Positions 32,250 to 51,087 of a stretch of DNA of 64,000 nucleotides are shown piece after piece; position 1 is the stretch's first letter, and each line of letters starts with the position of its first letter. Under the pieces are notes generated by a model, which did no database searches, was not told the origin of the DNA, and was given only the letters and a program-made list of their open reading frames with translations. The translations under genes and the position numbers were made by a program. Source of the DNA: an uncultured Candidatus Saccharibacteria bacterium (GTDB taxonomy: Bacteria > Patescibacteriota > Minisyncoccia > 2-02-FULL-40-12); the NCBI GenBank assembly GCA_964368135.1, contig CAYIZI010000001.1, positions 42,926 to 106,925 on the forward strand, in the 5' to 3' direction.

Positions 32250-32261
32250 TATTTGAAAATA

Positions 32262-33482: not shown

Positions 33483-33523
33483 TCTTTAATTATTATATAG
33501 AGTATTGAAAAAAACCGCCAAAC

Positions 33524-34279: not shown

Positions 34280-34328
34280 AACTATATCCTACCAGATTTT
34301 TGAACTAAAATATGCAGGCTAAAAACGA

Positions 34329-35579: not shown

Positions 35580-35580
35580 A

Positions 35581-37206
35581 TTAATCTTGGTTTTCCAAAA
35601 TTGGCTCGGTATTCAAAATATCCAAATACTCATCCCTTAATTGGTAAATATCGGCAAACGGATAAGAATCAACTAAATCGTATCTTTCAAATCCGGGCGT
35701 TCTTGAAACAAAACTCCATACCGAATCATTATCATCATGAGTCCGCATCACTATCCATCTTGCCCAATGGTCAGGCAGAGTTGTCGCCTCTTTCCAATAA
35801 TCGCCTGTTCCTTCATGGATGAATTTTTTCATCGGCATGCCGGACGAGAATATGATGGCGTCATGCGAAGCGGCGGATATTAATACAAATCCATCTTTAC
35901 CAGCGGCGTTTTGAGCCAGCCAGCCGCTTACTTCGGCGACGTTCTTCTGGCTTGAACCGACTCTGGCATCATCTATAGTAACCGCATCACCGCTTGAAAA
36001 CTGGAAAAAGAGAACAAAAAGAATCAATCCGATGATGACCGGCCTTAATTTTGAAACATAATGAATAAGATATCCGACAAATATCGCGATTGTCGGCATC
36101 AGCATTACTCCGTATCGGGCGTTAAACCAGGTGTCTCCTGATAAACCCTGAATAAATAATACCGAATGGCCAAGATAAAGAGCTAATATATTGAAGAAAA
36201 GGGGGGCCAACAAAACAAAAGTGGCAAAACGCACGCCTCGTCTTATATTCCCTGAAAACCAAAGAGCGACCGCCCCAACAAGACCCATAAGCGCTAAAAA
36301 CGCATTGGAATTATATGCCAAAGCGTAGAAATAGACTTTTAATGAAAAAAACCAATCCCCTTTTGTTGAAAGAACTCCGGCCGCTTCAAGCTGGGTCTGC
36401 TGGGTTCTGGCCGAATAAGGCCCGAAGGCAAAGTAAAGAGGATCGCCGAATATCAAAAGATTCCATAAAAACCACAATACTATGCCAAGCCCGGCCAGAG
36501 TAATGAATAAAATAAGCTTGCCCTCGGCCTGCTTATAGCCGTTTTTCTTCCATACGTAAAAAACAATCATCATTGAGGCTAAAACTAAAAGGAGCCAGCC
36601 GTCATACCTGACCAAGGTTGAAAGCATTATCCAAAAAGCTGACTTGACCAAGTCTACAACCTTGTCATCTTTGAACCACAGCATCAGATAATACGCACCC
36701 GCGGTCATAGCGGCGACAAGCGTTAATTCAGTCATGGCCGTTGACTGAAGATAAAGAACATTCAAATTTGAAGCAAATATCCCCACCCCGATTAATCTGC
36801 CGGTCATTTTAACTCCTATTTTTTCTAAGAACTTATAGATTATCAACCCGGTCAAAACAAAACCAAACATTGACCAGATCGTGCCGGCTAAGCCGGAATG
36901 CCACATAAAATCATTCCAGATTGTCAGGACCATAAGAAGGTGGGTAAGCGGCAGCCAGACGCTTCCCAACTGGGCAAACCCCGGCTTTAATCCCTCAACG
37001 ACCCGGCGGCCAATATCCAAGTGAGAACGGGCATCGTTATAAGCCAAGCTAAGCCCGTTCTGGAAATAAAACATGAAACTTAACACCGAGATAACTGATA
37101 GTATCGCCGCCACAATGGCAAAACCGTTTCTTTCAAAGAAAACTCCGACTCTATTTAGAGCATCGCTGCTTATATTGATTTTAATTACGCCCTTACTTTT
37201 GTTCAT
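35581..37206 (-). CDS. Polytopic membrane protein, putative GT-C fold glycosyltransferase (ArnT/PMT-like)
   Basis: 541 aa with >10 TM helices and a first-loop Asp/Arg/His motif (YNDARSHLDIGRR). Tentative. Confidence 0.35.
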   Translation of the reverse strand: MNKSKGVIKINISSDALNRVGVFFERNGFAIVAAILSVISVLSFMFYFQNGLSLAYNDARSHLDIGRRVVEGLKPGFAQLGSVWLPLTHLLMVLTIWNDFMWHSGLAGTIWSMFGFVLTGLIIYKFLEKIGVKMTGRLIGVGIFASNLNVLYLQSTAMTELTLVAAMTAGAYYLMLWFKDDKVVDLVKSAFWIMLSTLVRYDGWLLLVLASMMIVFYVWKKNGYKQAEGKLILFITLAGLGIVLWFLWNLLIFGDPLYFAFGPYSARTQQTQLEAAGVLSTKGDWFFSLKVYFYALAYNSNAFLALMGLVGAVALWFSGNIRRGVRFATFVLLAPLFFNILALYLGHSVLFIQGLSGDTWFNARYGVMLMPTIAIFVGYLIHYVSKLRPVIIGLILFVLFFQFSSGDAVTIDDARVGSSQKNVAEVSGWLAQNAAGKDGFVLISAASHDAIIFSSGMPMKKFIHEGTGDYWKEATTLPDHWARWIVMRTHDDNDSVWSFVSRTPGFERYDLVDSYPFADIYQLRDEYLDILNTEPILENQD

Positions 37207-38764
37207 TTTTTAAGAAAAATAAACTAACCATTAATGATAAAGTCACGGCTATTACTAAAGCTGTCATCATCTGATGATACTCTTGAGCGGTTAGGTATTG
37301 GCTGGCATATCTTTGGAATATAAACGACTTGGATTTATTCTTTTTCAATAAATCAAAATTTCTCTCATAAGTGAACTTTTCTTCTTTTCCTGACACCTCT
37401 TCAAGAGAAAGGACCTGCGCTTGCGGAGGATTAGTATCAGAAGTTATTGCTCCAAGAACATTAACCCAAACTGAATAGCTTACTAAAACAATAAATATTA
37501 TGCCGAATAAATAATTTTTCCTGAATTTAGTAAGAGCGAGTGAAAGGCCTATCCCTCCCAAGGCATAAGACGGAATCAGATATCTTGAACCAAATGCCCA
37601 CCCACCCCAAGGATCTCCCCAAAGAGAATAAAGAATTATATTAAATCCAATAGTTGCCAAAATTAAATTAGCGGCGGATCTATTTAACTTATACAAATAA
37701 GCAAAGCCCAAAATGCTTAAAAGAATAACCGGCGTGAACCAGACAATTCCCCTATCCGGACTTATGAAGTGGATATAAAATCCGTTAAGTAAATTCCTGG
37801 TTTTGAAAAATCCGACTGCTGTTTTCTCTTTATGGTAAGTTTTCTGTAGATTTAATAACTTGCTTATTTCTGATTGGGTTGGTAAACCTTTTTCATCTAT
37901 GGCCTCGACTGATTGAAGCGTACCGGGCAACTGGAATGGGTTGCCGGTAGAAGCCTGGTTAAACCATAGAAATAAAACGATGGGGGGGATAACGGCAAGT
38001 AGGGTTAAAAACCCGAGTATGTTGAAATTAATCTTTAATTTGAATTTTTCTTTTTCAATCCAGATTATTCTGGCCAAGGCAAAAACTCCAAGCGGAATCA
38101 TAAAAAATATGTTCGGGTTGTCCACCACGACCGAAAAGGCGATTAAAAACCATATCAAAGCCACTGACCAAAGATTATTCCAGCGGATAAGCGCATAAAT
38201 ACCCAATAGAATCAAAAAAGTTGATATATGATGCTGGTATAAAGTGGCGGCATAAGCAAAAGCCGGCGAAGCAAAAGCAAAAACAAGAGCCCCGATACTG
38301 GCCGCCAAAGGATTAGACCCTAACCTTATCGCTATCAACCTCACAAAGATTATATTCAAAAGAGCGAATAAAGCTGCGGTTGAAAATGCTCCCACTTGTG
38401 ATAATCCAAACTCTCTTCCTATCACGTAACCAGGTATAGCCAAAAAAGAAACACCCGGATTAAAAAGAGAAACATAACCGCCATTAACATAAGCAACATC
38501 TGGGGTAGTGAATTTGGCTAATGGCACTGAAAACTGAAAAGACTTATCCTCAACTAAAGAATAAGTCAAAGCAAATCTGCCCCTTTCCGGAGATAATTCA
38601 AAAGGCGCGCTTTCTGTAGGTTCATTAGGCTTCCACTGAGAAGTATTTAAGGCATCTTTGTTTGGATTTCCGGGAATGCCGCGCAAACCAAGAATTAAGA
38701 TAGCGGCGCAAAATAGTATAAACAATATGGCCGGAATTAATTGTAATATTTTAATTTTATCCAT
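37193..38764 (-). CDS. Polytopic membrane protein, putative GT-C fold glycosyltransferase or polymerase
   Basis: 523 aa with many TM helices. It is co-located with glycan genes. No confident family. Confidence 0.3.
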   Translation of the reverse strand: MDKIKILQLIPAILFILFCAAILILGLRGIPGNPNKDALNTSQWKPNEPTESAPFELSPERGRFALTYSLVEDKSFQFSVPLAKFTTPDVAYVNGGYVSLFNPGVSFLAIPGYVIGREFGLSQVGAFSTAALFALLNIIFVRLIAIRLGSNPLAASIGALVFAFASPAFAYAATLYQHHISTFLILLGIYALIRWNNLWSVALIWFLIAFSVVVDNPNIFFMIPLGVFALARIIWIEKEKFKLKINFNILGFLTLLAVIPPIVLFLWFNQASTGNPFQLPGTLQSVEAIDEKGLPTQSEISKLLNLQKTYHKEKTAVGFFKTRNLLNGFYIHFISPDRGIVWFTPVILLSILGFAYLYKLNRSAANLILATIGFNIILYSLWGDPWGGWAFGSRYLIPSYALGGIGLSLALTKFRKNYLFGIIFIVLVSYSVWVNVLGAITSDTNPPQAQVLSLEEVSGKEEKFTYERNFDLLKKNKSKSFIFQRYASQYLTAQEYHQMMTALVIAVTLSLMVSLFFLKNEQK

Positions 38765-40010
38765 TATATTGGTGATTTATCCTGCTATACGACTGAATAC
38801 CTATATCCTTTGAACTATTAGGGTTTTTGACTATCTGTTTATATAAACTATTCATACTATCGGCAACTTCCCTCCAAGAATTTCCAAGACTAAAGTTCAC
38901 GCAGTTTTTTTGCATATCTTTTATAAATTTGGAGCCATTATTTTTAAGGACAAAATCTATTTTCTTAGCTAAGGCTTTGTGATCACGAATCCCGATGCAG
39001 TATCCGTTTATTCCATTCTTAATCAAATATGTCAGGGCTTCATTATTAGAAACAATACATATTAAACCTTGACTTAAACCTTCATTTATAACATTTGGAT
39101 AAGCTTCTTTAATAGACATCAGAATCATCATCCCGGCCTTTTTAATTATATAGTACTTATCTATGCCTTTTATCAGCCCAGTAAATACCACTCTGTCTTG
39201 TAAACCTAATTTTTCTATAAGCTCCTGGAGGTATTTTTTATAAGAATTATCATCTTCTGGCCCTACAATCACAAACTTAAGATTTTTAGGCAGTATGGCC
39301 AGGGCTTTAATAGCGGTTTCGTAATTTTTAATTGGGTGGATCCTGCCTACCTGAATTATGTAATTACCTAATCCCTCAACTATTTTCTTTATTTCGGGAC
39401 TGGCCTTAGTTTCAACATCTTCAAAGGCCTCGCTTTCAATCCCGTTCTCAATAACCACAACAAGTTCTGGTTTTACTCCTTTTTCAATTATTTCAGATTT
39501 TTCTAATTCAGAAACAGCCCTGACCGCATCAACAACAAGATTTATAAAAAGTATTCCCGCTGTATAATGGTAGACTATTTTTATTATCTTCTGGATGGGA
39601 TTGAATATGGACCAGTCTGGAGTAAAGCCGCCGTGAGGAGTTAAAACCAAAGCAAAATTCTTTTTGCCTAAGATTTTTAGGAACAAAGCTTTAAACAAAA
39701 TGTGGAAGTGCGGAAAGATATTAAAATTGTGAAGGCAAACAAGGTTTGTATTTTTCCAGTTTATACTTGGCAAATAGCCATACCATTTAAAAGGATATCT
39801 TCTAATCTTGATGCTTCTAACTTCGTCTGTGTTAGGCAGATAATTTTTATTCGTAAACGTGTCTTTAGAAGTGTGGATAGTAACATCCCATCCTTTTTCG
39901 GCAAGAACGCTGTAAGTCTCCAAAATATTTGTCTCGGCGCCGGCTACAACCGGATAGAAGTACTTTTGTACTATATCAATATGACCAAGTTTTTCTGATT
40001 TTATATTCAT
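38757..40010 (-). CDS. GT4-family glycosyltransferase
   Basis: C-terminal GT4 signature ...EAYPNVINEGLSQGLICIVSNNEAL. Confidence 0.7.
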   Translation of the reverse strand: MNIKSEKLGHIDIVQKYFYPVVAGAETNILETYSVLAEKGWDVTIHTSKDTFTNKNYLPNTDEVRSIKIRRYPFKWYGYLPSINWKNTNLVCLHNFNIFPHFHILFKALFLKILGKKNFALVLTPHGGFTPDWSIFNPIQKIIKIVYHYTAGILFINLVVDAVRAVSELEKSEIIEKGVKPELVVVIENGIESEAFEDVETKASPEIKKIVEGLGNYIIQVGRIHPIKNYETAIKALAILPKNLKFVIVGPEDDNSYKKYLQELIEKLGLQDRVVFTGLIKGIDKYYIIKKAGMMILMSIKEAYPNVINEGLSQGLICIVSNNEALTYLIKNGINGYCIGIRDHKALAKKIDFVLKNNGSKFIKDMQKNCVNFSLGNSWREVADSMNSLYKQIVKNPNSSKDIGIQSYSRINHQYNG

Positions 40011-40019
40011 GATAATTTT

Positions 40020-40961
40020 TTATTCAGTTTGTTTATAAATTAATGTTTTGGATGACCTGTGAGGCATAAATAGAGGATCAAATTTTGAAACTTTTAATGT
40101 CGTAATCCTATTGATACATACCTCCAATAAATACAAGACGATCAAAACAGGATTCCTGAAAAAGCTTGATAAAACAGACTTAACGACCAACCCGAACGGC
40201 GGGCTATATTCCTTTTTAATCCAGGCTGGTTCAAAATACTTACAAAATGATCTTCGGCCGCTTATGAATTTAGTGCACTGCTTTTTCCTATCTTTGAAAT
40301 TGGTAACATTCCTAAAATAAAATCTTGCGCGATGTTGTTTAACCATTTTTAAATTCAACTGTTTTAACCTGAAATAAGTGTAAACGTCTTCTGGAAGGTC
40401 TAATGGCCATGTGAGATTTTGGGTAAAGTTCCTTGATAAAATTTTGGCTGAATTGCAACAATAAATATTATCGCCTCCTCGCCACTCACTGAACATCTTA
40501 CTTTTCATACGACTACCTTGAGTCATTACCTTTTCAAATAAACCAACGGGTTTAACCGGCTCTGCATTGCCGACTGCAATGCCCAGATTTTTAATACTTG
40601 ATTTCTTAAATGGATGCACCAACTCATCAATAACTCCTGTGTCGGCGGGCAAGGCGTCGCCTTCCACTATCATTAATAAGTCGCCGGAATATTTTTTAAG
40701 CATCAAGTTCTGCATAGCTTGCTGGCCTGATCTTTTTTTAAAGATAAACATTTTAATTATCTTAAATCTATTTGCCAAAGATTTAACAATATCTACAGAA
40801 TTATCTGTGGTGCCATCAAAGAAAACCATAATTTCTTTAAGCATATAATTATCCTGTTCCTGTTTAACCAGCCTCAAAATAAGCTCTTTAATATTGGCTT
40901 CCTCGTTGTAAACCGGAATGCCTATAGAAACCGTCAATTTTCTTGTTTTTTTCTGGTTCAT
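40020..40961 (-). CDS. GT2-family glycosyltransferase
   Basis: The N-terminal SIGIPVYNEEANIKELI and DGTTDNS motifs. Confidence 0.7.
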   Translation of the reverse strand: MNQKKTRKLTVSIGIPVYNEEANIKELILRLVKQEQDNYMLKEIMVFFDGTTDNSVDIVKSLANRFKIIKMFIFKKRSGQQAMQNLMLKKYSGDLLMIVEGDALPADTGVIDELVHPFKKSSIKNLGIAVGNAEPVKPVGLFEKVMTQGSRMKSKMFSEWRGGDNIYCCNSAKILSRNFTQNLTWPLDLPEDVYTYFRLKQLNLKMVKQHRARFYFRNVTNFKDRKKQCTKFISGRRSFCKYFEPAWIKKEYSPPFGLVVKSVLSSFFRNPVLIVLYLLEVCINRITTLKVSKFDPLFMPHRSSKTLIYKQTE

Positions 40962-40962
40962 T

Positions 40963-41871
40963 TTATTTATTTATTTGCTTAGTCGACGCATCAACATCCC
41001 AAACAGGATCAATAACTTTCTTTTCCGGTTGTTTATTTAATCTGGTATAAATAAACACACCCATATAAGAAACCAAAGATATAGGATGCCTAATAAATTC
41101 CTCTAAAAAGCTTAAAACTAATGCCTTGATTGGGATTTTATATTCGGCTGCTACTTGCTGACCAAAATAAGACACCATTTCTTTTAGAGCATATTGGTAG
41201 CGGCTGCTTGGACCCACCTGGTCGCTAATTTTTTGGGGACAGCGGATTTTAACAATAGCTTTGTCTGCTAAGGCAAACCTTCCGCCTAATCTCCTGTTTT
41301 CCAAGTACATATACATATCGCCGGTTACAATATTTTCGCGAAGATTAAACCTTTTAAAATGCTCGGTTCTAAATGCAAGACAACGACCGCTGGCCAATAG
41401 ATGGTTGCTCTTGCCTTTTAATTTTAAGACCATGTGGTCAATAACCCTGACCATACTTGCCATTGCCGACTCAAAAAAAGTTTCAGGCGGCAAAGGCAAA
41501 ACTCTTGCCCCAACCATGGTTGCTTCTGGATTACTCTGAAAAACAGACAGTATTTCTTTTAAAGTCCCGGGTTCAAAGGTTATATCGTCTTGAGTGGAAA
41601 CATAAATATCGCTATTGCATACATCAACCGTCTGCTTAATTTTTTTAAGCTGGCTCCCCTCTTTTTCATTCCAAATCAATTCAACTCCCAATTTGGAAAG
41701 CTCGGATTTAATTTCAGGCGATATCGGCGTGCGGTCAGCGCAAATTATAAATCTGAAGTTGCCCACTCCTTTTGAATTTCTAAGACCTTTGGCGGTGTCC
41801 GAAAGAGATTCGCCTCCGTAGCAAGTGGGTATAGCGACGGTTAATGTCAATTGTTTTTCTTTGTTATCCAT
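40963..41871 (-). CDS. GT2-like glycosyltransferase
   Basis: The GT-A-like N-terminus LTVAIPTCYGGESL. Weaker match. Confidence 0.5.
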   Translation of the reverse strand: MDNKEKQLTLTVAIPTCYGGESLSDTAKGLRNSKGVGNFRFIICADRTPISPEIKSELSKLGVELIWNEKEGSQLKKIKQTVDVCNSDIYVSTQDDITFEPGTLKEILSVFQSNPEATMVGARVLPLPPETFFESAMASMVRVIDHMVLKLKGKSNHLLASGRCLAFRTEHFKRFNLRENIVTGDMYMYLENRRLGGRFALADKAIVKIRCPQKISDQVGPSSRYQYALKEMVSYFGQQVAAEYKIPIKALVLSFLEEFIRHPISLVSYMGVFIYTRLNKQPEKKVIDPVWDVDASTKQINK

Positions 41872-43150
41872 TTTTGAAATGTTTGGTTTGTTCTTCTCTT
41901 AACTTATCTGATAAACGACCGTCCGGCCGCTCAACATCGGCATATGTAATTACTTCATCTTGTTTTATATCTCTCTTTAAAACACAGCCGTCCGTTAAAC
42001 CCATCGACAAGAGATTTTCTTTCAAACTGACATCATAATTTTCAATAACTCCATAACAGGTGAATCCGCCGATTCCGTCCAAAACTTCTCCTTTCTTAAG
42101 ATCTTTTTTGGCTAAAGTAATGACATCACAAAATGGCCTGCCGACTGGAGCCAAGGTGGCGTCTTTCATTAATACGGCTCTGGCCACACTGGCTGGTGTC
42201 TCAATAGGACTTAAATGATATGGCCTGTAAAATGTATATACTGGGCCATTGCCCATCTTATAGACCTTCATATACCTCTGTTTTATCGGGTGCTCGCTAT
42301 AAGCCAAGACAAAAACTCCAAAACTTGGTTCGGCTCCCAAGATATAATCCACTATCGGCCTGTCTTTTATTTCTTCAAACGGAAATAAATTAACGGCTTG
42401 CTCCACTCTCTCACAGCGATGGCCGAACATTCCTCTTTTTCCGACTCCAAACCCGACGGCATTGCCGATTGTGGCCATTTCCATGGCTATCTTTGTGCCA
42501 TCGGCAAAAGAAGTAATCATTTTCGGCCTCTGGAAATGGGCTTCGGCAAACGCCTTCTGGGTCTCCGGAGTTCTCCTCGCATCAATCAAGCTTTTTATAT
42601 TGCCCGCTAATATGGGTTTAAACCCCCACATTTTTACTTCCCTAATCAAATTCATTAAAACCGCAGGCTGGTCTCCGTCTCCTTGGGTATAGATAACTCC
42701 GGCAGCGTCAGCGTACTTTTTTAATATCGGCCCCAAAGTTGCATCAAGCTCGGCATTTATCAAAACGATGTGCTTTTTATTTTTTATCGCCTCCATCGCC
42801 ACTTTTGCCCCAAATTCAACTTCTCCGGTAGCATCAACAATTGCATCAATATAGGAAGAATTGCATAACAGCATTGGATTATCGGTGATAACATATTCTC
42901 CTGACTTAATAGCCGAATCTAAATCATTTTGATTATCCGCGCGCCTAATCGGACTGGCATTAAGTTCTTTCAGCGCCTCCTCCGCCGTATCTATAGTCCT
43001 ATTGGAAACTGCGCTCAACTTCATCCCCGGAGTTGAAGTAATAAGCTGAAGCATAAAACCCTTAGCCGCAAAGCCGGCGCCAACAAGGCCTACTCTTATG
43101 AGTTGGCTGTTGTTCTTTAATTCCTCTAATTTTTTATCAATGATAATCAT
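41864..43150 (-). CDS. NAD(P)-binding oxidoreductase with a C-terminal SAF-like domain (COG4091-like), sugar-nucleotide modification
   Basis: Rossmann N-terminus RVGLVGAGFAAKGF. Overall architecture recalled from homoserine-DH-like/SAF proteins found in polysaccharide loci. Confidence 0.45.
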   Translation of the reverse strand: MIIIDKKLEELKNNSQLIRVGLVGAGFAAKGFMLQLITSTPGMKLSAVSNRTIDTAEEALKELNASPIRRADNQNDLDSAIKSGEYVITDNPMLLCNSSYIDAIVDATGEVEFGAKVAMEAIKNKKHIVLINAELDATLGPILKKYADAAGVIYTQGDGDQPAVLMNLIREVKMWGFKPILAGNIKSLIDARRTPETQKAFAEAHFQRPKMITSFADGTKIAMEMATIGNAVGFGVGKRGMFGHRCERVEQAVNLFPFEEIKDRPIVDYILGAEPSFGVFVLAYSEHPIKQRYMKVYKMGNGPVYTFYRPYHLSPIETPASVARAVLMKDATLAPVGRPFCDVITLAKKDLKKGEVLDGIGGFTCYGVIENYDVSLKENLLSMGLTDGCVLKRDIKQDEVITYADVERPDGRLSDKLREEQTKHFKNG

Positions 43151-43159
43151 ATTTATTTA

Positions 43160-43690
43160 TTAGCTTTTAAAATCCGGCCAAGATGAATCTTTTTCAGAAA
43201 CATGCTCTACCGCTACCGGCCAATCAAAATTAAATTTCTTATCATTAAATCTAATTCCTTTTTCACATTCGGCCGTAAACGGCGCCGTATATAAATTTAT
43301 AAATTCAACATCGTCTCCCAGGGTTAAAAATCCGTGGGCAACGCCTTTAGGAACATACAGTGATTTCATATCTGAATCGCTAAGCTTAAAACCCTGCCAC
43401 TTCAGGTATGTCGGAGAGTTAGGTCTTACATCAACAATAACTTCATAGATAGAACCCCTGGTAACTCTGGTCAACTGGGCCATCTCTTGAGGTTTAATCT
43501 GATAATGGATTCCTCTGATTGTGCCTTTATTTTTTGTAAAAGAAATATAGCCCTGAACAATTTCATTGCTTATATTTACTTTTTTAAACTCATCCTTGCC
43601 GAATATGCGGGTTAAATTGCCTCGGTCATCCTCTCGCTTGGCAAGTTGAATTAAATACGAACCTTCAATGTTTGTTTTTATAAATTCCAT
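43160..43690 (-). CDS. dTDP/CDP-4-dehydro-6-deoxyhexose 3,5-epimerase (RmlC-like cupin)
   Basis: The RmlC core ...REDDRGNLTRIF...GIHYQ. Confidence 0.75.
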   Translation of the reverse strand: MEFIKTNIEGSYLIQLAKREDDRGNLTRIFGKDEFKKVNISNEIVQGYISFTKNKGTIRGIHYQIKPQEMAQLTRVTRGSIYEVIVDVRPNSPTYLKWQGFKLSDSDMKSLYVPKGVAHGFLTLGDDVEFINLYTAPFTAECEKGIRFNDKKFNFDWPVAVEHVSEKDSSWPDFKS

Positions 43691-43691
43691 A

Positions 43692-44723
43692 TTATTTTTT
43701 AACTTTCCAATTAAGCATATTGTCCAACTGGCCAGTTTCCATCAGGTATTTTATTTCTTTTAATCTGGTGAATGGATTCGACTCAAATACCTCCTTGGTC
43801 ATGGAAATTTTTTCAAATATTTGTTTTAACTGCTCGGCCCCGTCTTTAATGCTCCACTGGCATTTAAATCCGGGCAGTTTAGAATATATTTTGTCAAAAT
43901 TTACTCTGTAACTTCTGTTGTCGCTGCCGGCCTGGTCCATTGTAATTTTGCAATTGGGGAATACGTCAGATATTACTTTGGCAATATCTCTGACCTGATA
44001 ATTCCCTTTGTTGCTCCCAACATTGAATACTTGATTATGGACGACTTCTTTAGGCGCTTTAGCGGCGCAAATCATTGCCTGGCAAATATCAAGAATATGA
44101 ACCAATGGCCTCCAGGGAGTACCGTCGCTATTTAGTTTTATCTCTTTATCAACCCAGGCCAAGCCACTAAGGTTATTCAATACGATATCAAATCTCATTC
44201 TTGGAGAGGGTCCGTAAGCCGTGGCATTTCTTAAAAATACGGGCGAAAAATTATCATCGGCCAGTTTAAATAATTCTTTTTCCACCAATATTTTGCATTT
44301 AGCATAAGCTGTCTGGGGATTGACGGCAGACTCTTCAGTCACCAAATCATCTTTGGCAATGCCGTAAACGCTGCACGAAGACGAATATATAAACCTTTTG
44401 ACACCGGCTTTCTTGCATTTTTCAGCCAGTGAAACCGAGCCATGATAGTTTATGGAATAGGTTAAATCAGGGTTAATTTCGCCGAGAGGATCATTAGACA
44501 GCTCGGCCAGATGAATAACAACGTCAAATCCTCTTAAATCATCTTCGGTCACATCACGGGTATCTTTGCGCAGAATTTCCGGCTGTTTGCCAAAACCGTT
44601 ATAAAGCTGGCCGGACTTATAAAATCCGGCATCTAAACCAACCACCTCATATCCTTTTTCGATCATTTTAGGAGCTAAGACAGAACCGATATATCCGTCT
44701 GCTCCGGTTATTAATATTTTCAT
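43692..44723 (-). CDS. NAD-dependent epimerase/dehydratase (extended SDR; CDP/dTDP-glucose 4,6-dehydratase or 4-epimerase-like)
   Basis: MKILITGADGYIGSVL Rossmann motif. Start taken at MKILITG. Confidence 0.8.
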   Translation of the reverse strand: MKILITGADGYIGSVLAPKMIEKGYEVVGLDAGFYKSGQLYNGFGKQPEILRKDTRDVTEDDLRGFDVVIHLAELSNDPLGEINPDLTYSINYHGSVSLAEKCKKAGVKRFIYSSSCSVYGIAKDDLVTEESAVNPQTAYAKCKILVEKELFKLADDNFSPVFLRNATAYGPSPRMRFDIVLNNLSGLAWVDKEIKLNSDGTPWRPLVHILDICQAMICAAKAPKEVVHNQVFNVGSNKGNYQVRDIAKVISDVFPNCKITMDQAGSDNRSYRVNFDKIYSKLPGFKCQWSIKDGAEQLKQIFEKISMTKEVFESNPFTRLKEIKYLMETGQLDNMLNWKVKK

Positions 44724-44725
44724 AA

Positions 44726-45448
44726 TTACCAAACCTTCCAAAGGGCCTGGCCTTTTTGCCAAAGCTCCTCCAGAATATTTTTATCTCTTAGCGTATCCAG
44801 ACACATCCAAAATCCTTTGTGGCGATACGCGGCTAATTTACCGTCTTCGACCAACTGCTTCATTGGTTCTTGTTCAAAAACAGTTTCATCTCCTTGGATG
44901 TAATCAATTACTTTCGGGTCAAGAATAAAAAATCCGCCGTTTATCCACGAACCCCCATTTTTTGGTTTTTCCCTGAAACTTGATACCAATCCATTCTTGC
45001 CCTCAATTTTTAAAATACCGAACCTCCCTTCCGGCTGAACTGCTGTTACGGTGGCTGGTAAATTATGGCCATTATGGAATTCTAAAAGTTTTTTTAAATC
45101 AACATCGGCAACACCGTCGCCATAAGTAAGGAAAAACTGGCCATTACCAAGATAATCTTTTATTCTCTTTATCCTGCCGCCGGTCATGGTTTCCTGTCCG
45201 GTATCAACAATGGTTATATTCCAATTTTCATTATCAATCCCTTTGCTAAAATACTCCTTTATCATGTCGCCTTTGTAGCCGGCACAAATGATAAAGTCGT
45301 TAAAACCCTGGGTTGAAAATATTTTCATAACATGCCAAAGCATCGGTTTGCCGCCGATTTCAACCATTGGCTTAGGCCTGACCGAAGTTTCCTCGGCTAT
45401 CCTGGTGCCATAACCGCCTGCTAAAATTACCACTTTCATATCATTCAT
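44726..45448 (-). CDS. rfbF: Glucose-1-phosphate cytidylyltransferase
   Basis: MKVVILAGGYGTRIAEETSVRPKPMVEIGGKPMLWHVMKIF closely matches RfbF (CDP-glucose pyrophosphorylase). Confidence 0.8.
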   Translation of the reverse strand: MNDMKVVILAGGYGTRIAEETSVRPKPMVEIGGKPMLWHVMKIFSTQGFNDFIICAGYKGDMIKEYFSKGIDNENWNITIVDTGQETMTGGRIKRIKDYLGNGQFFLTYGDGVADVDLKKLLEFHNGHNLPATVTAVQPEGRFGILKIEGKNGLVSSFREKPKNGGSWINGGFFILDPKVIDYIQGDETVFEQEPMKQLVEDGKLAAYRHKGFWMCLDTLRDKNILEELWQKGQALWKVW

Positions 45449-45452
45449 ATAG

Positions 45453-46364
45453 TTAATTATTCTTACAAAAATCTTTGACGTAATTTATGTCTTCCTGGGA
45501 CAGCTTCGGCCAATACGAACTCACCAGCCACTTGCCGCCTAACATCACTGAATTACTGTTAAAAGCTTCCTGCGTCTTCAGATTGGACAGACCAATGGCG
45601 TGACCAAAACCGTGAATCATTTCTCTTATCAAGGCGGATTCTATTAATTTCCCTTCATCTGCTAAACTGCCTAAATAAACATTACTGTTGGCTGCATAGT
45701 CAAATAAGGCCGTAAAAATATTCAGCATAAAATGATCCACGGTTCCATTGCTATATATCTTTTGATACGAAACATCAGTATAATCATAATCTTCCCCATT
45801 CTTAAATTTAAAGGCCGGGTCAAGAATAAAGTTAACCGTATTTACGGTTCCTTGGTAATTATTGAATAAATCAATACCCAAAGCATCTTCCCACTGTTTT
45901 TCGGCATAACCGAGAAGCTCGTTAAGCCGCTGGCGGCTATAACCCAGTTCAAATAATCTCACATCAACATTCCCTAATTTGTAGGTTAGTTGAATTGAAC
46001 AATGAGCCGGAGGCGGCAGAGGCGTAGGCGTGGGAGTTGGAGTTGGGGTCGGAGTTGGAGTTGGGGTCGGTTTCGGAACTGGTTTTGGTTTTTGCGTAGA
46101 ACTTGGAGTAGAAACCGGCCCAATCGGCGATTCAGACGGTTCTGACGTAGCCGATGGACTTAAAATAGGAGTCGGCGTCGGAGTTGATTCTTCAAATAAT
46201 TGGGCAATGAGGGCCGCCGGGTTATTATCAGTATTCATTATCTTACTTAAACCAAAAGTAAATCCGACTGAAATAATCAATGCAAAAGCAGGAACTAATA
46301 CAGACAGTGGGATGAAACCTGACTTTATGCTTATTATTTTTTTGTTTTTGTTGGTTTTATTCAT
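45453..46364 (-). CDS. Membrane-anchored protein with a Pro/Thr-rich (PTPT) linker and a C-terminal domain carrying a HGFGH motif
   Basis: TM anchor, (TP)n linker, then the conserved-looking MIHGFGHAIGL. Possibly a degenerate metallopeptidase-like domain. Confidence 0.45.
   Translation of the reverse strand: MNKTNKNKKIISIKSGFIPLSVLVPAFALIISVGFTFGLSKIMNTDNNPAALIAQLFEESTPTPTPILSPSATSEPSESPIGPVSTPSSTQKPKPVPKPTPTPTPTPTPTPTPTPLPPPAHCSIQLTYKLGNVDVRLFELGYSRQRLNELLGYAEKQWEDALGIDLFNNYQGTVNTVNFILDPAFKFKNGEDYDYTDVSYQKIYSNGTVDHFMLNIFTALFDYAANSNVYLGSLADEGKLIESALIREMIHGFGHAIGLSNLKTQEAFNSNSVMLGGKWLVSSYWPKLSQEDINYVKDFCKNN
46030..46072. repeat. Tandem hexanucleotide repeat (GGAGTTGGAGTTGGGGTC)n encoding the (TP)n linker
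   Basis: Read directly. The ORF track shows antisense (GV)n and sense PTPTPT. Confidence 0.6.
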
Positions 46365-46370
46365 ATTTTT

Positions 46371-49300
46371 TTACTTACTGATTATTGATAAAAACGCCTT
46401 GCTTGTTTTACTCCAGTCAAAATTACTGGCCCATTTTACTGCTTCCTGGCTCATCCGGTCGCGGAGATCCTTGTCTCGAATTATCGTTAAGATACTCTCC
46501 GCGAATGCATCGCTATTGCCGTAAGAAACAAGGCGGCCAGTTTCCATATTTTTCACAGAATCCCTTAAGCCCGGTACGTCAGAAGCCACTATCGGGGTGC
46601 CGCAAGCATTGGCTTCAATCGTGGTAATGCCCCACCCTTCCATAAACGAAGGATTTACAAATACCCAGGCTTTTTGAAAAAGTTCTATTTTCTCTTTTTC
46701 AGAAACCTTTCCTCTAAATACTACTTTGCCGTTAAGATTAAGTTCAGAGGCTAATCTTTTTAACGAATTTTCTTCTTCGCCGCTGCCGACAATGACCAAC
46801 CGGGCATCATCAACTTGTCTTATAACCTTTTCAAAAGCTCTTACTAAAACATCAACCGACTTATAGGCTTTAAGCCTTCCCAAATAAAGAATAGTCGGTT
46901 CCGGACTCTTTCTCCCAAGAGTTAAATTTTTAGAATTGACTCCGGGATGGACTATTTCAATTCCTTTCTTAGTTCCAAGGCCAAAACTCTGAATATCTTT
47001 TTTGCTTGATTCCGAAACCGTAATAAACTTTACATTCCGGTAGACTATGGGCATCAAATCCTTCTCTAAAAATATTGCCAGCTTTGCTAAGGGTTTAGGC
47101 AAAGAATGCCTGAAGACTTCCTGATGGATATGATGGATAAGACAATAAATCGGCTTCCTTGAATAGATGGGCGTAAAAAAAGGAATGCCGTTATGACAAT
47201 CAACTATGATGTCATATTTGCCTCTGAATTGGGTCAGGTAGTAAATAAAAGCCCAGAGGTAAACAAAGTAAAACCCGCCTCTTCTTATGATTTCAACCCC
47301 ATCTATAATTTCTCTTCTCTTTGAATAACTGTCATTGCCGCAAAAAACAGTGACCTGGTGTCCATCCTTGACCCACTGTTTGGCGATTTCGTGGACATAA
47401 AGTTCTGCTCCGCCACCATATATATGCCTTGTGTCTCTCCAGTTAAATATAAGAATCCTCTTGCCGAGCTTCGCCATCGGAGCCTCGGTTTCAATAGGTC
47501 TAAACGCATCTTTCAAATCAATAATGCCCCTCCAGACAAACTTAAGCCTGCCCTCAAGTACGTGGAATAAATAAACCAGGCCCAACCCAAAGATGCTGGC
47601 CCATAAAATAACATTGACTATCTCTTCGACGCTGCCGTGATTTAGGATTATGCCGATAGACATAAACAATGAAGCAGTCATTGAAATAATCGGGAATATA
47701 AATTGCCTTTTAGCCAAATGATAGACGACTATAGAATTTGAAATCGTGAAAACAGTAAGCGCGAGAGTGTAAATATTAAGATAAGGCAGAATGGCCAGCG
47801 TCTTGGAGCCAAAAAGTATCGGCACGGTTAAATTGCCCAGAGGGCCCAAAAAAATAAACCCGGCTAATGACAAAAGGACGGTTGAACCAACCAGCAGCTC
47901 AAATGTCTTTTTAGTATTTCTCTTTAATCCCTCGTCTCGGCCAATCAAAGTAATCATAAATATATTGGGCAGAGAGCCGAGAAAATATATCATCTTGCCG
48001 ACAAGCGATATTAGAGTGTACTCGCCGGCCAAACGCGGCGATAAAAAGTGTTTGACTAAAATAATGTCAATGCTTAAAAATATCGTCGCCGACATTAAAG
48101 TAAGTATTGAGGCGTAGAAAAACCTGCCCGGAAACTTATGGTTTTTAGTCTGAATAAAATCTTCAGAATGCCTTGAAACAGCCAAAACAGAAGCCATTGA
48201 AGCAACCGCTATGGATATCGGAATTGAAAGATAAACTAAATGATTTAACCCATACCAGGCGAAAAGAGCCGCCGCAATAAACTTACTTACTGATTCAAAA
48301 AGAATAACGAAAGCAACACTGGTAAAGTAAAGATTGCCATTAAGAAACCCCCTGTTTGCCGACGCAATCACTCCCAAAGTCAGAACCGGAGTGAACATAA
48401 AAAGGATGGACTGGCTGCTTATGTTAAAGAAATTAGAAAGGAATGAAACTGAAACTATCCACATTACCGATATGCCTAAGGCAATAGGAATTGCTTTGTT
48501 CAAAGTTGATTTGAGAAACGCAAGCGCCGACCCCTCACCCTTTTCAACGGCCAGATGAGCAGTCTTATGGTTTACCGTTGAGGAAACCGCGCCCATAAAT
48601 ATCGCCGCTACTGACCATAAAGTATTAACCAGTATCACTAGACTAAGTTCTTCAAAAGACAAAACCCTTCCCAGGAAAGCGTTAAAAAGAAAATTAAGGA
48701 AATTGGCGAACATCATCGCCGCAATCATAAGCGCCGCTCCCGAAAGAGCATTTTCGGTCAGCGATAACGGCAAAAATTTATTAGTGGTTTTTTTCAGCCA
48801 AGAATCTTTCTTTATAAAATTAAGAGTCAATTCAGGTTTCGGGGCCGGTCCCGATTTTATCGTCCCTAAAACAGGTAAGGGTTTTAATTTCTTTAAATGC
48901 AGGCCGTGCTTGGTCTTTTCCCAGAAATGCGGCTTAATGAAAAGCTGGTAAGTTGCCATTACCGCGGCAATACTCATAAAGAACCAATAGAAAGGTATTA
49001 AAAAGACATATTTTATTATTGGCCAGTGGCCCCTTTTGGCACAGCCGATCATGTAATAGTAAAAATAGAGAAAATTCCCGAAGACCAGAGAAAAAACGGC
49101 GATATAAAAGACCGGGGTCGGATATATTGATTCTATGGTCGGACCGACAACGGAACGCAGGGCGAAATAAGAGATCGTCATAAACCACAAAATTGGATTT
49201 ATAAGCATAAAGACAATTTTGCCGCCGATGTTAAGCTGGAAAAGAAAAGTATGGATGCCGCTTTTTTTCAAAAATTCCATCGGCTTTCTCATATGAACCA

Positions 49301-51047
49301 GATATGTCTGCATATAGCCCTTAATCCACCTTGACCTCTGCCTTATCCAGTTCCAAACCTGACTATTTGCTTCTTCAAGAGTTATTGAATCAATAATCGC
49401 CGTGTTGAAACCCTGTTTAAATAACCGCACCCCCAAGTCGGCGTCTTCGGTAACGTTGAAGGGATCCCAACCCTTAAGATTCCTTAAGTCGGCGGTCCGG
49501 AAATGGTTGCTGGTGCCGCCAAGAGGAATTGAAGTATTAATTGACTGAAGACCCGGCAGAATGATTTCAAACCACAACGAGTACTCGGCCGTAAAAAGCC
49601 GGGTCAAAAGATTTTGATTGGTGTTATAATAATTGAGTTTTGCCTGAAGACATTTAACTTTTTCTGGCACTCTTTGAAAAGCCAAATAAGCTTTCTTAAG
49701 CTGCTGGGGTTCGGGCATATCTTCGGCGTCGTAAACGACAAGATACTCACCCTTGGCTGAATTAAGACCATAATTGCAGGCCTTGGGCTTGGTCTTAGGC
49801 AAAGAGTGAGGAACGATTACTATCCTTACGTAGCTTGGCAAATCTATTGACCTGGCAGTATCTATTGTCTCTAAGTCGTTTTCTTCTAAAAGCAGCTGGA
49901 CATCCAATTTATCCTTAGGCCACTCCAATTTGCTTATTGAATTTAAAAATTTTGGAAGAACCGCTGATTCCCGATAAAGCGGGCAGAGAATCGCATAAAC
50001 CGGCAGAGAACTTTCGTCTATCCGGGAAAGTTCCTCATCAGTAAAACTAAGTTCCGGAGGATTATGCAGACTTTTTGTGATAAGGAATAAATTAAACAAA
50101 ACGTCAAAAAAGTATAGAGAGCTTAAAACAGCCATTAAAGCTATGGCCGTATAGAGCGGGAAAAATAAAAATCCGGCAACAGCCAAAATAACGGATAGAA
50201 ATATTAAAAATTTCTGGCTGGCGGTAAATGTGATTAGGGCCGAGGTTTCACTGTCAAGATTAGAATGAGTAATGAACCTTCTGCCTTTATGGGCCATTCC
50301 GGCGCCGATCATACTTGATTCGTCTTGCGGCGGTATTTGAATCGGCTTTTTCTTTTTTAACTTGTTGGCCAACGCGTTAGTGCCTATTTCCCAACTGGCT
50401 TTTATGACATTGATTTTTGATTCACCGGAATGCCTCTTTTCAAAATCTATATTAACGGTGGCTATTTCATGGCCGGCGTATCTGGCGTTAACCAAGAATT
50501 CCAGATCAAAGGTCCACTGGGACGGATTAACTGCTATTTCCTTGGTTATCTGTTTTTTAAAAACTTTTAACCCTGACTGGACATCGCACTTAAGCCCGTG
50601 AAGAATCCGGCCAAAAACAAAATTAAAACCTTTGCTGGCCAGCTTTCTTAAGGGGCTTATGCCTTTATAACGTCTATTGGCCACAACTACGCCGGCGCCA
50701 TCTCTAATTTTTCTCACCATTTCCGGTATCGCTTCCGGCGGGTACTGCAGGTCAGCGTCAATCATCCCGACAGTGTCATACTTGGCATAATCAAAACCCT
50801 CAAGAATAGAAAAGGCCTTACCCTTTTTGCCTTTCTTCAAATGACAACTAATTGGATATTCGTCGGCCAGATTATTGGCAATCTTAACCGTATTATCGGT
50901 TGAGTGGTCATCTATTGTGACTATTTCATACTCAATACCGCCTTTTTTTAAAGCATTATCAATCCTCTTGACTAACTTCTGGATATTTCCTTCTTCATTA
51001 AAAGTAGGAATAATTATTGATACTTTTTCAGTGTTTTTGGCCTCCAT
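46371..51047 (-). CDS. 1558-aa multidomain glycan-synthesis fusion protein: DPM1-like GT2 + processive QxxRW GT2 + multi-TM flippase-like block + GT4
   Basis: aa 1-230 IIIPTFNEEGN...DADLQYPPE (DPM1/GtrB-like GT2). aa ~340-600 YDAEDMP, TEDADLG and QRSRW (cellulose-synthase/NodC-like). aa ~760-1170 give about 12 predicted TM helices. The C-terminal ~380 aa ...EGWGITTIEANACGTPIVASDVPG is GT4. It is one uninterrupted ORF. Confidence 0.8.
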   Translation of the reverse strand: MEAKNTEKVSIIIPTFNEEGNIQKLVKRIDNALKKGGIEYEIVTIDDHSTDNTVKIANNLADEYPISCHLKKGKKGKAFSILEGFDYAKYDTVGMIDADLQYPPEAIPEMVRKIRDGAGVVVANRRYKGISPLRKLASKGFNFVFGRILHGLKCDVQSGLKVFKKQITKEIAVNPSQWTFDLEFLVNARYAGHEIATVNIDFEKRHSGESKINVIKASWEIGTNALANKLKKKKPIQIPPQDESSMIGAGMAHKGRRFITHSNLDSETSALITFTASQKFLIFLSVILAVAGFLFFPLYTAIALMAVLSSLYFFDVLFNLFLITKSLHNPPELSFTDEELSRIDESSLPVYAILCPLYRESAVLPKFLNSISKLEWPKDKLDVQLLLEENDLETIDTARSIDLPSYVRIVIVPHSLPKTKPKACNYGLNSAKGEYLVVYDAEDMPEPQQLKKAYLAFQRVPEKVKCLQAKLNYYNTNQNLLTRLFTAEYSLWFEIILPGLQSINTSIPLGGTSNHFRTADLRNLKGWDPFNVTEDADLGVRLFKQGFNTAIIDSITLEEANSQVWNWIRQRSRWIKGYMQTYLVHMRKPMEFLKKSGIHTFLFQLNIGGKIVFMLINPILWFMTISYFALRSVVGPTIESIYPTPVFYIAVFSLVFGNFLYFYYYMIGCAKRGHWPIIKYVFLIPFYWFFMSIAAVMATYQLFIKPHFWEKTKHGLHLKKLKPLPVLGTIKSGPAPKPELTLNFIKKDSWLKKTTNKFLPLSLTENALSGAALMIAAMMFANFLNFLFNAFLGRVLSFEELSLVILVNTLWSVAAIFMGAVSSTVNHKTAHLAVEKGEGSALAFLKSTLNKAIPIALGISVMWIVSVSFLSNFFNISSQSILFMFTPVLTLGVIASANRGFLNGNLYFTSVAFVILFESVSKFIAAALFAWYGLNHLVYLSIPISIAVASMASVLAVSRHSEDFIQTKNHKFPGRFFYASILTLMSATIFLSIDIILVKHFLSPRLAGEYTLISLVGKMIYFLGSLPNIFMITLIGRDEGLKRNTKKTFELLVGSTVLLSLAGFIFLGPLGNLTVPILFGSKTLAILPYLNIYTLALTVFTISNSIVVYHLAKRQFIFPIISMTASLFMSIGIILNHGSVEEIVNVILWASIFGLGLVYLFHVLEGRLKFVWRGIIDLKDAFRPIETEAPMAKLGKRILIFNWRDTRHIYGGGAELYVHEIAKQWVKDGHQVTVFCGNDSYSKRREIIDGVEIIRRGGFYFVYLWAFIYYLTQFRGKYDIIVDCHNGIPFFTPIYSRKPIYCLIHHIHQEVFRHSLPKPLAKLAIFLEKDLMPIVYRNVKFITVSESSKKDIQSFGLGTKKGIEIVHPGVNSKNLTLGRKSPEPTILYLGRLKAYKSVDVLVRAFEKVIRQVDDARLVIVGSGEEENSLKRLASELNLNGKVVFRGKVSEKEKIELFQKAWVFVNPSFMEGWGITTIEANACGTPIVASDVPGLRDSVKNMETGRLVSYGNSDAFAESILTIIRDKDLRDRMSQEAVKWASNFDWSKTSKAFLSIISK

Positions 51048-51070: not shown

Positions 51071-51087
51071 ATCCCATATTATGGGAT
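51071..51087. promoter_or_regulatory. Palindrome ATCCCATA-T-TATGGGAT immediately 5' of the giant gene start (a T-run follows on the minus strand)
   Basis: Read directly. It could be a weak terminator of the GNAT gene or an operator. Confidence 0.3.

Follow-up and report, generated by a model that had tools for sequence, protein, structure and literature searches.

The window analysed here, 64,000 nucleotides from an uncultured Candidatus Saccharibacteria bacterium (assembly GCA_964368135.1, contig CAYIZI010000001.1, positions 42,926 to 106,925), belongs to a contig obtained from the 0.1-µm filter fraction of Hainich groundwater. Its minus strand carries an open reading frame (ORF) of 1558 aa with an ATG start (46371..51047), in which several modules of glycan assembly are joined in one polypeptide, hereafter called the fusion. 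A reading made earlier from the sequence letters (the original prediction) had proposed one uninterrupted minus-strand frame at exactly these coordinates, with two family 2 glycosyltransferases (GT2), a flippase-like transmembrane (TM) block and a family 4 glycosyltransferase (GT4) following each other. The translation contains a single stop codon, located at its end, and the Pfam search found two GT2 domains and a GT4 in the single frame, which, together with the fold of the TM block, bore out the four modules and their order. The motifs quoted in that prediction are all present, with little or no variation among 120 homologues. From the N-terminus, the fusion is composed of the following parts:

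50343..51047, minus strand (residues 1-235): module 1, GT2-A, GT-A fold, assigned to the DPMS/GtrB/ArnC class
50223..50342, minus strand (residues 236-275): conserved juxtamembrane segment leading from GT2-A to the hairpin
50064..50222, minus strand (residues 276-328): TM hairpin, the two N-terminal TM helices of the synthase unit
49257..50030, minus strand (residues 340-597): catalytic domain of module 2, GT2-B, a membrane-embedded GT2 assigned to the HAS/BcsA class
48900..49256, minus strand (residues 598-716): C-terminal membrane helices of the synthase
48747..48899, minus strand (residues 717-767): disordered, Lys-rich, predicted cytoplasmic linker between the synthase half and the flippase half
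47553..48746, minus strand (residues 768-1165): module 3, predicted 12-TM fold of the MOP superfamily (MurJ/Wzx/MATE)
46374..47465, minus strand (residues 1195-1558): module 4, GT4, a retaining glycosyltransferase of GT-B type

A search of 5.8 billion proteins (E<=1e-10) returned 1228 matches, the best 120 of which were used for the alignment and for the conservation counts given below. These 120 are 51-86 % identical to the fusion and all contain GT2 and GT4 Pfam domains; the length of 119 is 1533-1730 aa, the remaining one (1389 aa) being marked as partial in its source. They could be aligned end to end, and the sole poorly aligned part was the variable-length linker. More than 120 full-length homologues, annotated merely as “glycosyltransferase”, occur across the Patescibacteria (Candidate Phyla Radiation, CPR), with full-length matches in metagenome-assembled genomes (MAGs) titled Woese-, Dojka-, Roizman-, Ames-, Davies-, Gottesman-, Doudna-, Levy-, Moranii- and Saccharibacteria, and they were drawn from many independent NCBI, ENA, JGI and Logan assemblies. 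Since so many full-length homologues from independent assemblies align over their entire length, the fusion is not an assembly artefact, and with the single stop codon this rules out a chimera or missed stops. The architecture is thus not unique but common across the Patescibacteria. Hydropathy and the AlphaFold2 (AF2) model indicated 2 TM helices (276-328), then 3 hydrophobic helices (598-704) and then 12 helices (768-1165); the model of residues 1-1200 had a mean local confidence (pLDDT) of 86.6 and a predicted global score (pTM) of 0.60.

The first module matched Glycos_transf_2 (PF00535) over residues 10-168 (whole-protein E 1e-38), and the Protein Data Bank (PDB) sequences matched by it were the P. 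furiosus DPMS (5mlz, 1.5e-33), ArnC (3e-22) and GtrB (5ekp, 9e-21). Its AF2 model superposed on 5mlz with a root-mean-square deviation (rmsd) of 2.5 at about 30 % identity, and ArnC and GtrB were also matched by Foldseek. The DADLQ(Y/H)PPE motif is common to GT2-A and the solved DPMS, GtrB and ArnC proteins, and D97, D99, Q101, E105, D155 and R205 are kept in at least 117 of the 120 homologues (for the DxD at 97-99, D97 in 119 and D99 in 118). By sequence and fold, GT2-A falls among the polyprenyl-phosphate sugar synthases, and polyprenyl phosphate is its likely acceptor. Partial NCBIfam matches were obtained to AglJ (4.7e-22), to Agl16 and to the haloarchaeal dolichyl-phosphate hexose transferase. 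While the solved DPMS, GtrB and ArnC own 2-4 TM helices after the catalytic domain, the helices next to GT2-A are shared with, or are part of, the GT2-B unit.

The juxtamembrane segment keeps the pattern M.GAG...rF.TH..L....SA among the homologues and is predicted to form small beta-strands at 236-238, 250-253 and 256-259 (AF2). It is followed by the hairpin, whose helices span 276-295 and 297-328 according to AF2, in agreement with hydropathy, and which alone gave no real Pfam match. The hairpin falls inside a 471-residue alignment (48 % identity) to a stand-alone Paenibacillus protein in which an MshEN domain precedes the GT2 and GT2-A is lacking, and the alignment of the fusion to stand-alone GT2-B proteins begins at about residue 263. 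As it is included in the alignment to a protein without GT2-A, the hairpin probably belongs by descent to the synthase unit; being part of stand-alone GT2-B proteins outside the CPR, it is unlikely to be simply an anchor of GT2-A. In two Microgenomates MAGs (L019 and L029), the gene is split after the hairpin, which stays there with GT2-A.

GT2-B has the highest median identity of all modules (72 %). It was assigned by Pfam to PF13641 Glyco_tranf_2_3 (351-577, 2e-32) and PF13632 Glyco_trans_2_3 (436-639, 2e-19), and D391, KPKACN (420-425), DAED (440-443), GGTSNHF (510-516), TED (533-535) and QRSRW (570-574) do not vary in any of the 120 homologues. Among these are the D, DxD, TED and Q(Q/R)xRW motifs of the class of BcsA, hyaluronan synthase (HAS), chitin synthase and NodC, and the TM helices flanking the domain have a synthase-like fold. 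A sequence search of the PDB gave nothing for GT2-B at 1e-3, while its model aligned in Foldseek over about 450 columns with the Chlorella virus HAS (CvHAS; 7sp7, 8e-12, target-normalised TM-score 0.53-0.58), BcsA (9b8v, 5ej1, 4p00), Xenopus HAS1 and PcManGT (6yv7), an enzyme with a minimal synthase fold. GT2-B resembles CvHAS and BcsA both in the D, DxD, TED, QxxRW signature and in having two TM helices before the GT-A domain and several after it. Judged by this model, GT2-B may well be processive and may export its product. The C-terminal helices (598-629, 644-672 and 681-704 by hydropathy and AF2), which alone gave no real Pfam match, are closed by the motif P706-x2-W709-x-K711-T712-x-H714-G715-L716, invariant in all 120 homologues, and the same P-x2-W-x-K-T-x-H-G-L motif terminates the stand-alone Paenibacillus protein. 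We take the invariant W709-x-K-T part to resemble the gating-loop motifs WGTR of HAS and chitin synthase and FxVTxK of BcsA. The best match of the 1-1200 model by E value was the E. coli K4 chondroitin polymerase (2z86), which like the fusion has two GT-A domains in one chain, but with a query-normalised TM-score of only 0.14-0.16 and an rmsd of about 18-20 (Foldseek); that enzyme is soluble and lacks a TM synthase unit, a flippase and a GT-B domain, while the fusion has all three.

The synthase half is followed by the linker, residues 725-767 of which were modelled with pLDDT <50. In the homologues, the region corresponding to 705-767 varies between 36 and 214 aa with a mean net charge of +7.9, and the median identity of the linker is 18 %. 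Since it is rich in Lys and Arg, the linker is predicted to be cytoplasmic by the positive-inside rule; the segment after the MOP block is also K/R-rich, and both fit cytoplasmic glycosyltransferase (GT) domains. The flippase-like TM block had been recognised in the original prediction, and the AF2 model of residues 768-1165 (pLDDT 88.7, pTM 0.86) supported this reading: the top 50 PDB matches in Foldseek were all MurJ, WzxE or MATE proteins with probability 1.0, and the query-normalised TM-scores were 0.55-0.77 over these 50 and 0.70-0.77 for the best ones (MurJ/WzxE at best 0.70-0.75). Four of 28 orthologous blocks matched each of Polysacc_synt (best 1.6e-8), MatE and Polysacc_synt_3, while a profile made from the 28 orthologues gave only spurious orexin-receptor (GPCR) matches against PDB sequences. 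N785, K922, D994, H1000, K1018 and H1137 are invariant in the 120 homologues, and R794 and E918 are nearly so. As modelled, the TM block has the fold of a divergent MOP flippase, and from this fold and the fusion partners it would flip a lipid-linked saccharide. The block shares with MurJ and WzxE the 12-TM fold, conserved charged residues within TM helices and, by the positive-inside rule, the N-in, C-in topology, at a sequence identity of 10-19 %, but MurJ has two further TM helices that are missing here, and the block, unlike both, is joined to glycosyltransferases on both sides. The disordered linker of variable length makes it a flexibly tethered independent domain. The suggestion that it forms a BcsA-like channel contiguous with the QxxRW GT2 did not hold, as the block has a MOP fold of its own behind the disordered linker and the synthase has its own helices; a BcsA-type channel was ruled out on these grounds.

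The two halves of the fourth module matched Glyco_transf_4 (PF13439, 1212-1372, 1e-17) and Glycos_transf_1 (PF00534, 1379-1539, 1.5e-45). E1470-x7-E1478 and G1390-R1391 are invariant in the 120 homologues, and the nearest PDB sequences were MshA (3c4q, 3e-21), PimA, PimB' and BshA, a similarity of generic kind. The Pfam “GT4-conflict” match lies beneath the much stronger generic GT4 match, and a role in defence was rejected.

Read along the coding strand, a gene cluster begins with the fusion, which the original prediction had placed at its end. The other genes of the cluster are arranged as follows:

38757..46364, minus strand: variable middle of the cluster (annotated with Pfam and NCBIfam)
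37193..38764, minus strand: unkA, a 523-aa polytopic membrane protein at the cluster end
35581..37206, minus strand: unkB, a 541-aa polytopic membrane protein at the cluster end, predicted to be related to GT-C/PMT_2
34329..35579, minus strand: 416-aa protein with a C-terminal CarboxypepD_reg domain (PF13620, 3.6e-8)

The middle part encodes, in order, a 303-aa Pro/Thr-rich membrane protein, a glucose-1-phosphate cytidylyltransferase, an epimerase/dehydratase of the short-chain dehydrogenase/reductase (SDR) type, a 3,5-epimerase, a DRL oxidoreductase, two GT2 and a GT4, after which come unkA, unkB and the CarboxypepD_reg protein. The cluster had been predicted to be of CDP-deoxyhexose type, which was borne out only in part: the cytidylyltransferase scored above the NCBIfam cutoff (TIGR02623, 357.6 bits against 300.25), while the neighbouring SDR protein remained below the model for CDP-glucose 4,6-dehydratase. 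Other genes occupy the middle part in five further CPR loci (e.g., PIG-L or Polysacc_deac_1 deacetylases, methyltransferases and APH-like kinases), while the leading fusion gene and the pair of unkA and unkB are found in each of them, and the CarboxypepD_reg protein trails unkB wherever these loci extend far enough.

unkA, unkB and further glycosyltransferases share the cluster with the fusion in nearly every CPR locus that is long enough. unkB has more than 120 homologues in Patescibacteria (62-69 % identity), all “hypothetical” and without Pfam domains, with the conserved motif YNDARSHLDIGRRV. It had no direct Pfam match itself, and its profile gave nothing at E<=10 against PDB sequences, while hhalign comparison with two Paenibacillus PMT_2 proteins gave probabilities of 97.8 % (E 1e-12, 401 columns) and 96.1 %. 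By this profile similarity unkB is related to GT-C/PMT_2, and it would act as a GT-C glycosyltransferase. unkA, which overlaps the upstream GT4 gene by 8 nt, is present in nearly all CPR loci and is fused to GT4 in one of them (L006). It had no Pfam match and nothing at E<=10 in the profile search of PDB sequences; the sole match was NCBIfam NF047440 (“LA_3751/LA_3752 putative glycosyltransferase”, E 2e-10, 40 bits), below the cutoff, so that unkA may be a glycosyltransferase. Its profile did not match the Paenibacillus PMT_2 proteins and matched unkB weakly (19 % probability). The conserved motifs of unkA are FELSPERGRF, YQHH, DNPN, SPDRG and WGDPWGGWAFGSRYLIP. Since the fusion is so regularly accompanied by unkA and unkB, the latter of which forms one protein with GT2-B in other lineages, it is not a self-contained synthase-exporter as the original prediction had it. 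No initiating phosphoglycosyltransferase (Bac_transf or WecA/MraY type) and no Wzy was found among the cluster proteins scanned (31791-46364), and a Wzx/Wzy pathway was rejected on this basis; a set of Bac_transf and Wzy_C lies upstream of the fusion in L006 only.

The distribution of the modules was followed in several surveys. Among 1.84 billion representative proteins, 6408 were recognised as relatives by a profile of the MOP block (857 with E<=1e-30), and the best 150 were classified with hidden Markov models (HMMs) built from each module. MOP stood alone in 72 of these 150, was joined to GT4 in a protein of about 800 aa in 39 and to a generic GT2 in 12, while the complete six-element fusion was found in 8 and versions without GT2-A in about 6. 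In a scan with one genome per GTDB species, residues 1-1200 had at least 592 relatives, the C-terminal synthase motif (706-716) being one of the two patterns that retrieved them. When the module HMMs were run over 86 loci, the order GT2A, hairpin, GT2B, TM, [MOP], GT4 was kept in every case, and each fusion junction was found split in some lineage without a change in the order of modules. Junctions that are split while the order is kept point to functionally linked proteins. The modules thus occur as separate proteins in other organisms, as anticipated; GT2A-GT2B is itself a frequent sub-fusion, and MOP-GT4 is the commonest one.

Outside the CPR, Actinomycetota, Chloroflexota, Bacillota and Dormibacterota have a GT2-B with its TM helices that is 46-50 % identical. 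Eleven of the 12 non-CPR orthologues tested have one or two N-terminal MshEN domains (loci L055, L059, L060, L063, L065, L067, L068, L073, L079, L081 and L084, with ORF starts at about 8.7-9.2 kb). MshEN is a high-affinity receptor of cyclic di-GMP (c-di-GMP; PMC5013675), and E. coli NfrB, a GT2 synthase with a C-terminal MshEN, is an experimentally supported c-di-GMP-activated synthase of exopolysaccharide (EPS; PMC8669469). The MshEN is C-terminal in NfrB and N-terminal in the non-CPR orthologues, while in the CPR it is absent and GT2-A stands in that position. NfrB is 23 % identical to GT2-B (E 3e-7) and no MshEN Pfam match was found in the window's protein, so that membership in the NfrB family was rejected. 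By comparison of these sequences, the c-di-GMP receptor domain was lost from the CPR proteins, and its place is taken by GT2-A.

In Actinomycetota, Chloroflexota and Bacillota, an unkB homologue usually adjoins GT2-B, and a single ORF encodes both in Ktedonobacteraceae and Chloroflexia (L072:6173-9082, L075:9713-12622 and L086:9773-12778); the fused protein of L072 has a PMT_2 score of 30.5 bits against the Pfam cutoff of 26.1. In a Dormibacterota MAG (L054:11278-14595), one ORF combines a DPMS-like GT2, unkB and a domain of the GH5 cellulase family. Being fused to each of them, unkB is tied both to a backbone-type synthase and to a lipid-sugar synthase. The cluster of Paenibacillus foliorum contains GT4, GT2, MshEN-GT2-B, a DPMS-like GT2 with GtrA_DPMS_TM, PMT_2, GH92, GH26-CBM35 and a second PMT_2. 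From its sequence, the MshEN-GT2-B protein with its PMT_2-like neighbour looks like an uncharacterised c-di-GMP-linked EPS system.

Considering the folds, motifs, synteny and fusions together, we propose a model of two cooperating branches, one of backbone synthesis and export and one delivering lipid-linked sugar through unkB, for and against which we see about equal weight. The fusion would be a single inner-membrane polypeptide uniting the cytoplasmic and membrane steps of a conserved surface-glycan pathway of Patescibacteria. Module 2 would polymerise the backbone from a nucleoside diphosphate sugar (NDP-sugar) and thread it through its own TM helices, while on the cytoplasmic side GT2-A would load a sugar onto polyprenyl phosphate and the MOP domain would flip the lipid-linked sugar, possibly after its extension, to the outer face, where it could serve unkB as a donor in decorating, extending or anchoring the polymer as it emerges. 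The GT4, on the cytoplasmic face, would most likely make or extend the lipid-linked species flipped by MOP, and unkA may use its product. The role of GT4 is the least certain part of the model; its tight pairing with MOP suggests that it completes the flipped unit, by analogy with MurG acting before MurJ. The identities of all the sugars are ones that we infer.

The lipid-sugar branch has precedents in the chains of GT2 synthase, flippase and GT-C enzyme of GtrB/GtrA/GtrC, ArnC/ArnEF/ArnT, GacI/GacK/GacL and the Haloferax AglD/AglR/AglS, among which GacK and AglR are proposed flippases of MOP/Wzx type. The CPR cluster likewise encodes a DPMS/GtrB-class GT2, a flippase and a GT-C-type protein together; unlike in these three-component systems, GT2-A and the flippase are covalently joined to each other and to two more glycosyltransferases, and the CPR GT2-A apparently has no TM domain of its own, while the Paenibacillus homologue has GtrA_DPMS_TM instead. 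The same enzyme classes (cytoplasmic GT4, polyprenyl-phosphate-sugar synthase, flipping, outside GT-C) are found in the mycobacterial pathway of phosphatidylinositol mannosides, lipomannan and lipoarabinomannan. That pathway consists of PimA/PimB' (GT4), Ppm1 (GT2) and GT-C mannosyltransferases, which are separate proteins, and has no HAS-like synthase, whereas the CPR fusion includes such a synthase and has its modules in one chain. Compared with the class of BcsA, HAS and NfrB, the fusion is without a PilZ domain, BcsB and an outer-membrane partner, and GT2-B is partnered by a GT-C-like protein; we know of no characterised synthase with a partner of this kind. No characterised counterpart of the fusion was found, as the original prediction had expected, and a search of a full-text collection that was incomplete yielded no description of the four-module fusion, of a HAS-class synthase/GT-C pairing or of the CPR-wide cluster. 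The architecture, the partnership and the cluster are apparently undescribed, as far as absence of evidence can indicate; every module is a known family and the sequence itself is already public under generic names.

Several observations weigh against the two-branch model. MOP is fused most often to GT4 and not to GT2-A (39 of the 150 best representatives), so what it flips may be made by GT4 and not by GT2-A. In five CPR loci the fusion lacks the MOP block (L020, L024, L028, L035 and L039; L043 was also listed so), by which the flippase would be dispensable or supplied elsewhere, and the MOP block of the window alone had no Pfam match even at E<=10. Among the matches covering GT2-B, the best target-normalised TM-score belonged to PcManGT, which we take to be a mannosyltransferase of lipid-linked glycans and not a polymer synthase, and on this account GT2-B may be non-processive. 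The three hydrophobic helices after GT2-B have the wrong TM parity for a cytoplasmic linker; one of the helices in 598-704 is probably an interface helix. In addition, unkA has no assignable fold, the packing between the modules is indeterminate in the model because of the whole-model pTM of 0.60, and every step of the two-branch model rests on prediction from sequences and modelled structures.

The original prediction had envisaged a strictly linear series, which the pattern of fusion and fission fits less well than two cooperating branches: GT2-A would prime a lipid, GT2-B would elongate the same lipid-linked primer, the TM block would translocate the polymer and GT4 would decorate it, with no obligatory partner. 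The strictly conserved order of GT2A-GT2B-MOP-GT4 and the frequency of the GT2A-GT2B sub-fusion would suit such a line, as would two parallels, the WbbF O:54 pathway, which presumably elongates a lipid-linked primer in a synthase-dependent manner, and PcManGT, structurally close to GT2-B and, as we understand it, active on lipid-linked acceptors. Nevertheless, we regard it as improbable, since MOP flippases presumably move short lipid-linked units and not long polymers, the MOP block stands behind a disordered variable linker and is missing from some fusions, and GT4 needs cytoplasmic NDP-sugars and therefore could not decorate after export; moreover, nearly all CPR loci with the fusion have retained unkA and unkB, and in other lineages unkB and GT2-B form one protein.

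A route resembling Wzx/Wzy or the archaeal Agl pathway appears rather unlikely. There, GT2-A would supply the first sugar as polyprenyl-phosphate hexose, GT4, GT2-B and the other glycosyltransferases of the cluster would extend it non-processively, MOP would flip the lipid-linked oligosaccharide, and unkA and unkB would be a polymerase, a ligase or an oligosaccharyltransferase to protein or wall. It accounts well for the partial matches to AglJ, Agl16 and the haloarchaeal dolichyl-phosphate hexose transferase, for the extra GT2/GT4 genes and sugar-modifying enzymes in every cluster, and for MOP-GT4 being the tightest fusion, which is expected if GT4 completes the flipped unit as MurG does before MurJ; the lack of an initiating transferase for undecaprenyl pyrophosphate among the scanned cluster proteins fits monophosphate-linked assembly. 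What it leaves aside is the complete and invariant processive-synthase signature of GT2-B with HAS-like flanking TM helices, the GT2-B orthologues that are c-di-GMP-receptor fusions typical of EPS synthases, and the PMT_2-like nature of unkB, PMT_2 enzymes presumably using polyprenyl-phosphate-monosaccharide donors. There is also a slight chance that the fusion serves only co-expression or stoichiometry in a reduced genome, its uncoupled modules contributing to two or more unrelated glycoconjugates, e.g., an EPS and a GT4/MOP glycolipid or lipoglycan. The units GT2A-GT2B and MOP-GT4 are indeed independent proteins in many genomes, the halves are separated by a variable, disordered linker, the glycolipid-making PimA and PimB' are among the nearest solved structures related to GT4, and outside the CPR the GT2-B/unkB pair occurs without MOP-GT4. 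Against this, the order and the fusion of the halves are kept across very divergent CPR classes, split halves stay adjacent (L033, L038, L041, L049 and L051), and the cluster retains unkA as well as unkB.

Some further features of the window and of the related loci were also recorded. The 303-aa protein (45453-46364, minus strand) consists of an N-terminal TM helix, a long Pro/Thr/Ser-rich spacer (PT-repeat) and a C-terminal domain whose HGFGHAIGL resembles the metzincin motif HExxHxxG with the Glu replaced by Gly; this protein is not conserved in the other loci, and its repeat yields a spurious antisense ORF (46030-46524, plus strand). The 416-aa protein has one hydrophobic helix (residues 3-21) and an approximately 300-aa domain without a family match in front of CarboxypepD_reg, and is probably secreted, judging from its sequence. 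Its family also directly follows unkB in L002, L003 and L004, and it showed no similarity to the GT2-unkB-GH5 fusion protein of L054. Past an intervening SDR gene lies a DUF4015 “putative glycosyl hydrolase” (32262-33482, minus strand), and these two proteins are possible counterparts of the hydrolases in synthase operons. A perfect 7-bp hairpin followed by TTTTATTT is located at 51071-51087 on the minus strand, 24 nt upstream of the ATG of the fusion; its sequence would suit a terminator of the GNAT acetyltransferase gene upstream or a leader element, and in the promoter/terminator scan terminator-like sites were no commoner than in shuffled sequence. A type IV pilus/type II secretion (T2SS) set, with a T2SSE ATPase, T2SSF and several N_methyl pilins, is encoded directly upstream of the cluster (52703-53179, minus strand, and upstream; L001 2545-8345).

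Among the related loci, a 22-kb stretch of a Saccharimonadales MAG (L026, 3.8-17.7 kb) contains three paralogous GT2A-GT2B units, two of them each followed by an unkB homologue and the third being a fusion with a weak MOP match beside a separate MOP gene. In L020 (9959-14089), Pfam detected GT2, GT2 and GT4 within 1377 aa and the MOP block was absent. A CPR-type fusion with the unkA/unkB cluster (about 46-59 % identity) also occurs in MAGs titled Gammaproteobacteria, Bdellovibrionales or Pseudomonadales, which are TPA assemblies (L007, L008, L011, L017, L018, L020, L023 and others); we suspect that these labels are wrong.

A large part of bacterial diversity falls within the ultra-small Patescibacteria, but almost nothing is known of how their host-contacting surface is built and what it consists of. 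The cluster headed by the fusion probably builds a major surface glycan, and its presence in many CPR classes with intact catalytic sites makes it a concrete candidate for a core envelope-glycan pathway. The fusion also serves as a natural “Rosetta stone” connecting five protein families, including unkA and unkB, which at present pass as “hypothetical”, and it exposes an uncharacterised EPS system of MshEN-bearing synthase and GT-C protein in Actinomycetota, Chloroflexota and Bacillota, where some carriers are cultured (Paenibacillus, Cohnella and Desulforamulus) and genetics may be possible. We suggest tentatively, and with more doubt than confidence, that the fusion, unkB and unkA represent an undescribed assembly route for polysaccharide, in which a synthase of the HAS/BcsA class is physically coupled to a GT-C protein (the two being one ORF in some Chloroflexota) fed by a polyprenyl-phosphate-sugar synthase and a flippase acting in cis; in Patescibacteria this route would have been condensed into one polypeptide with loss of c-di-GMP control and would make a major, lineage-wide envelope glycan, a candidate for the surface layer of epibiotic attachment.

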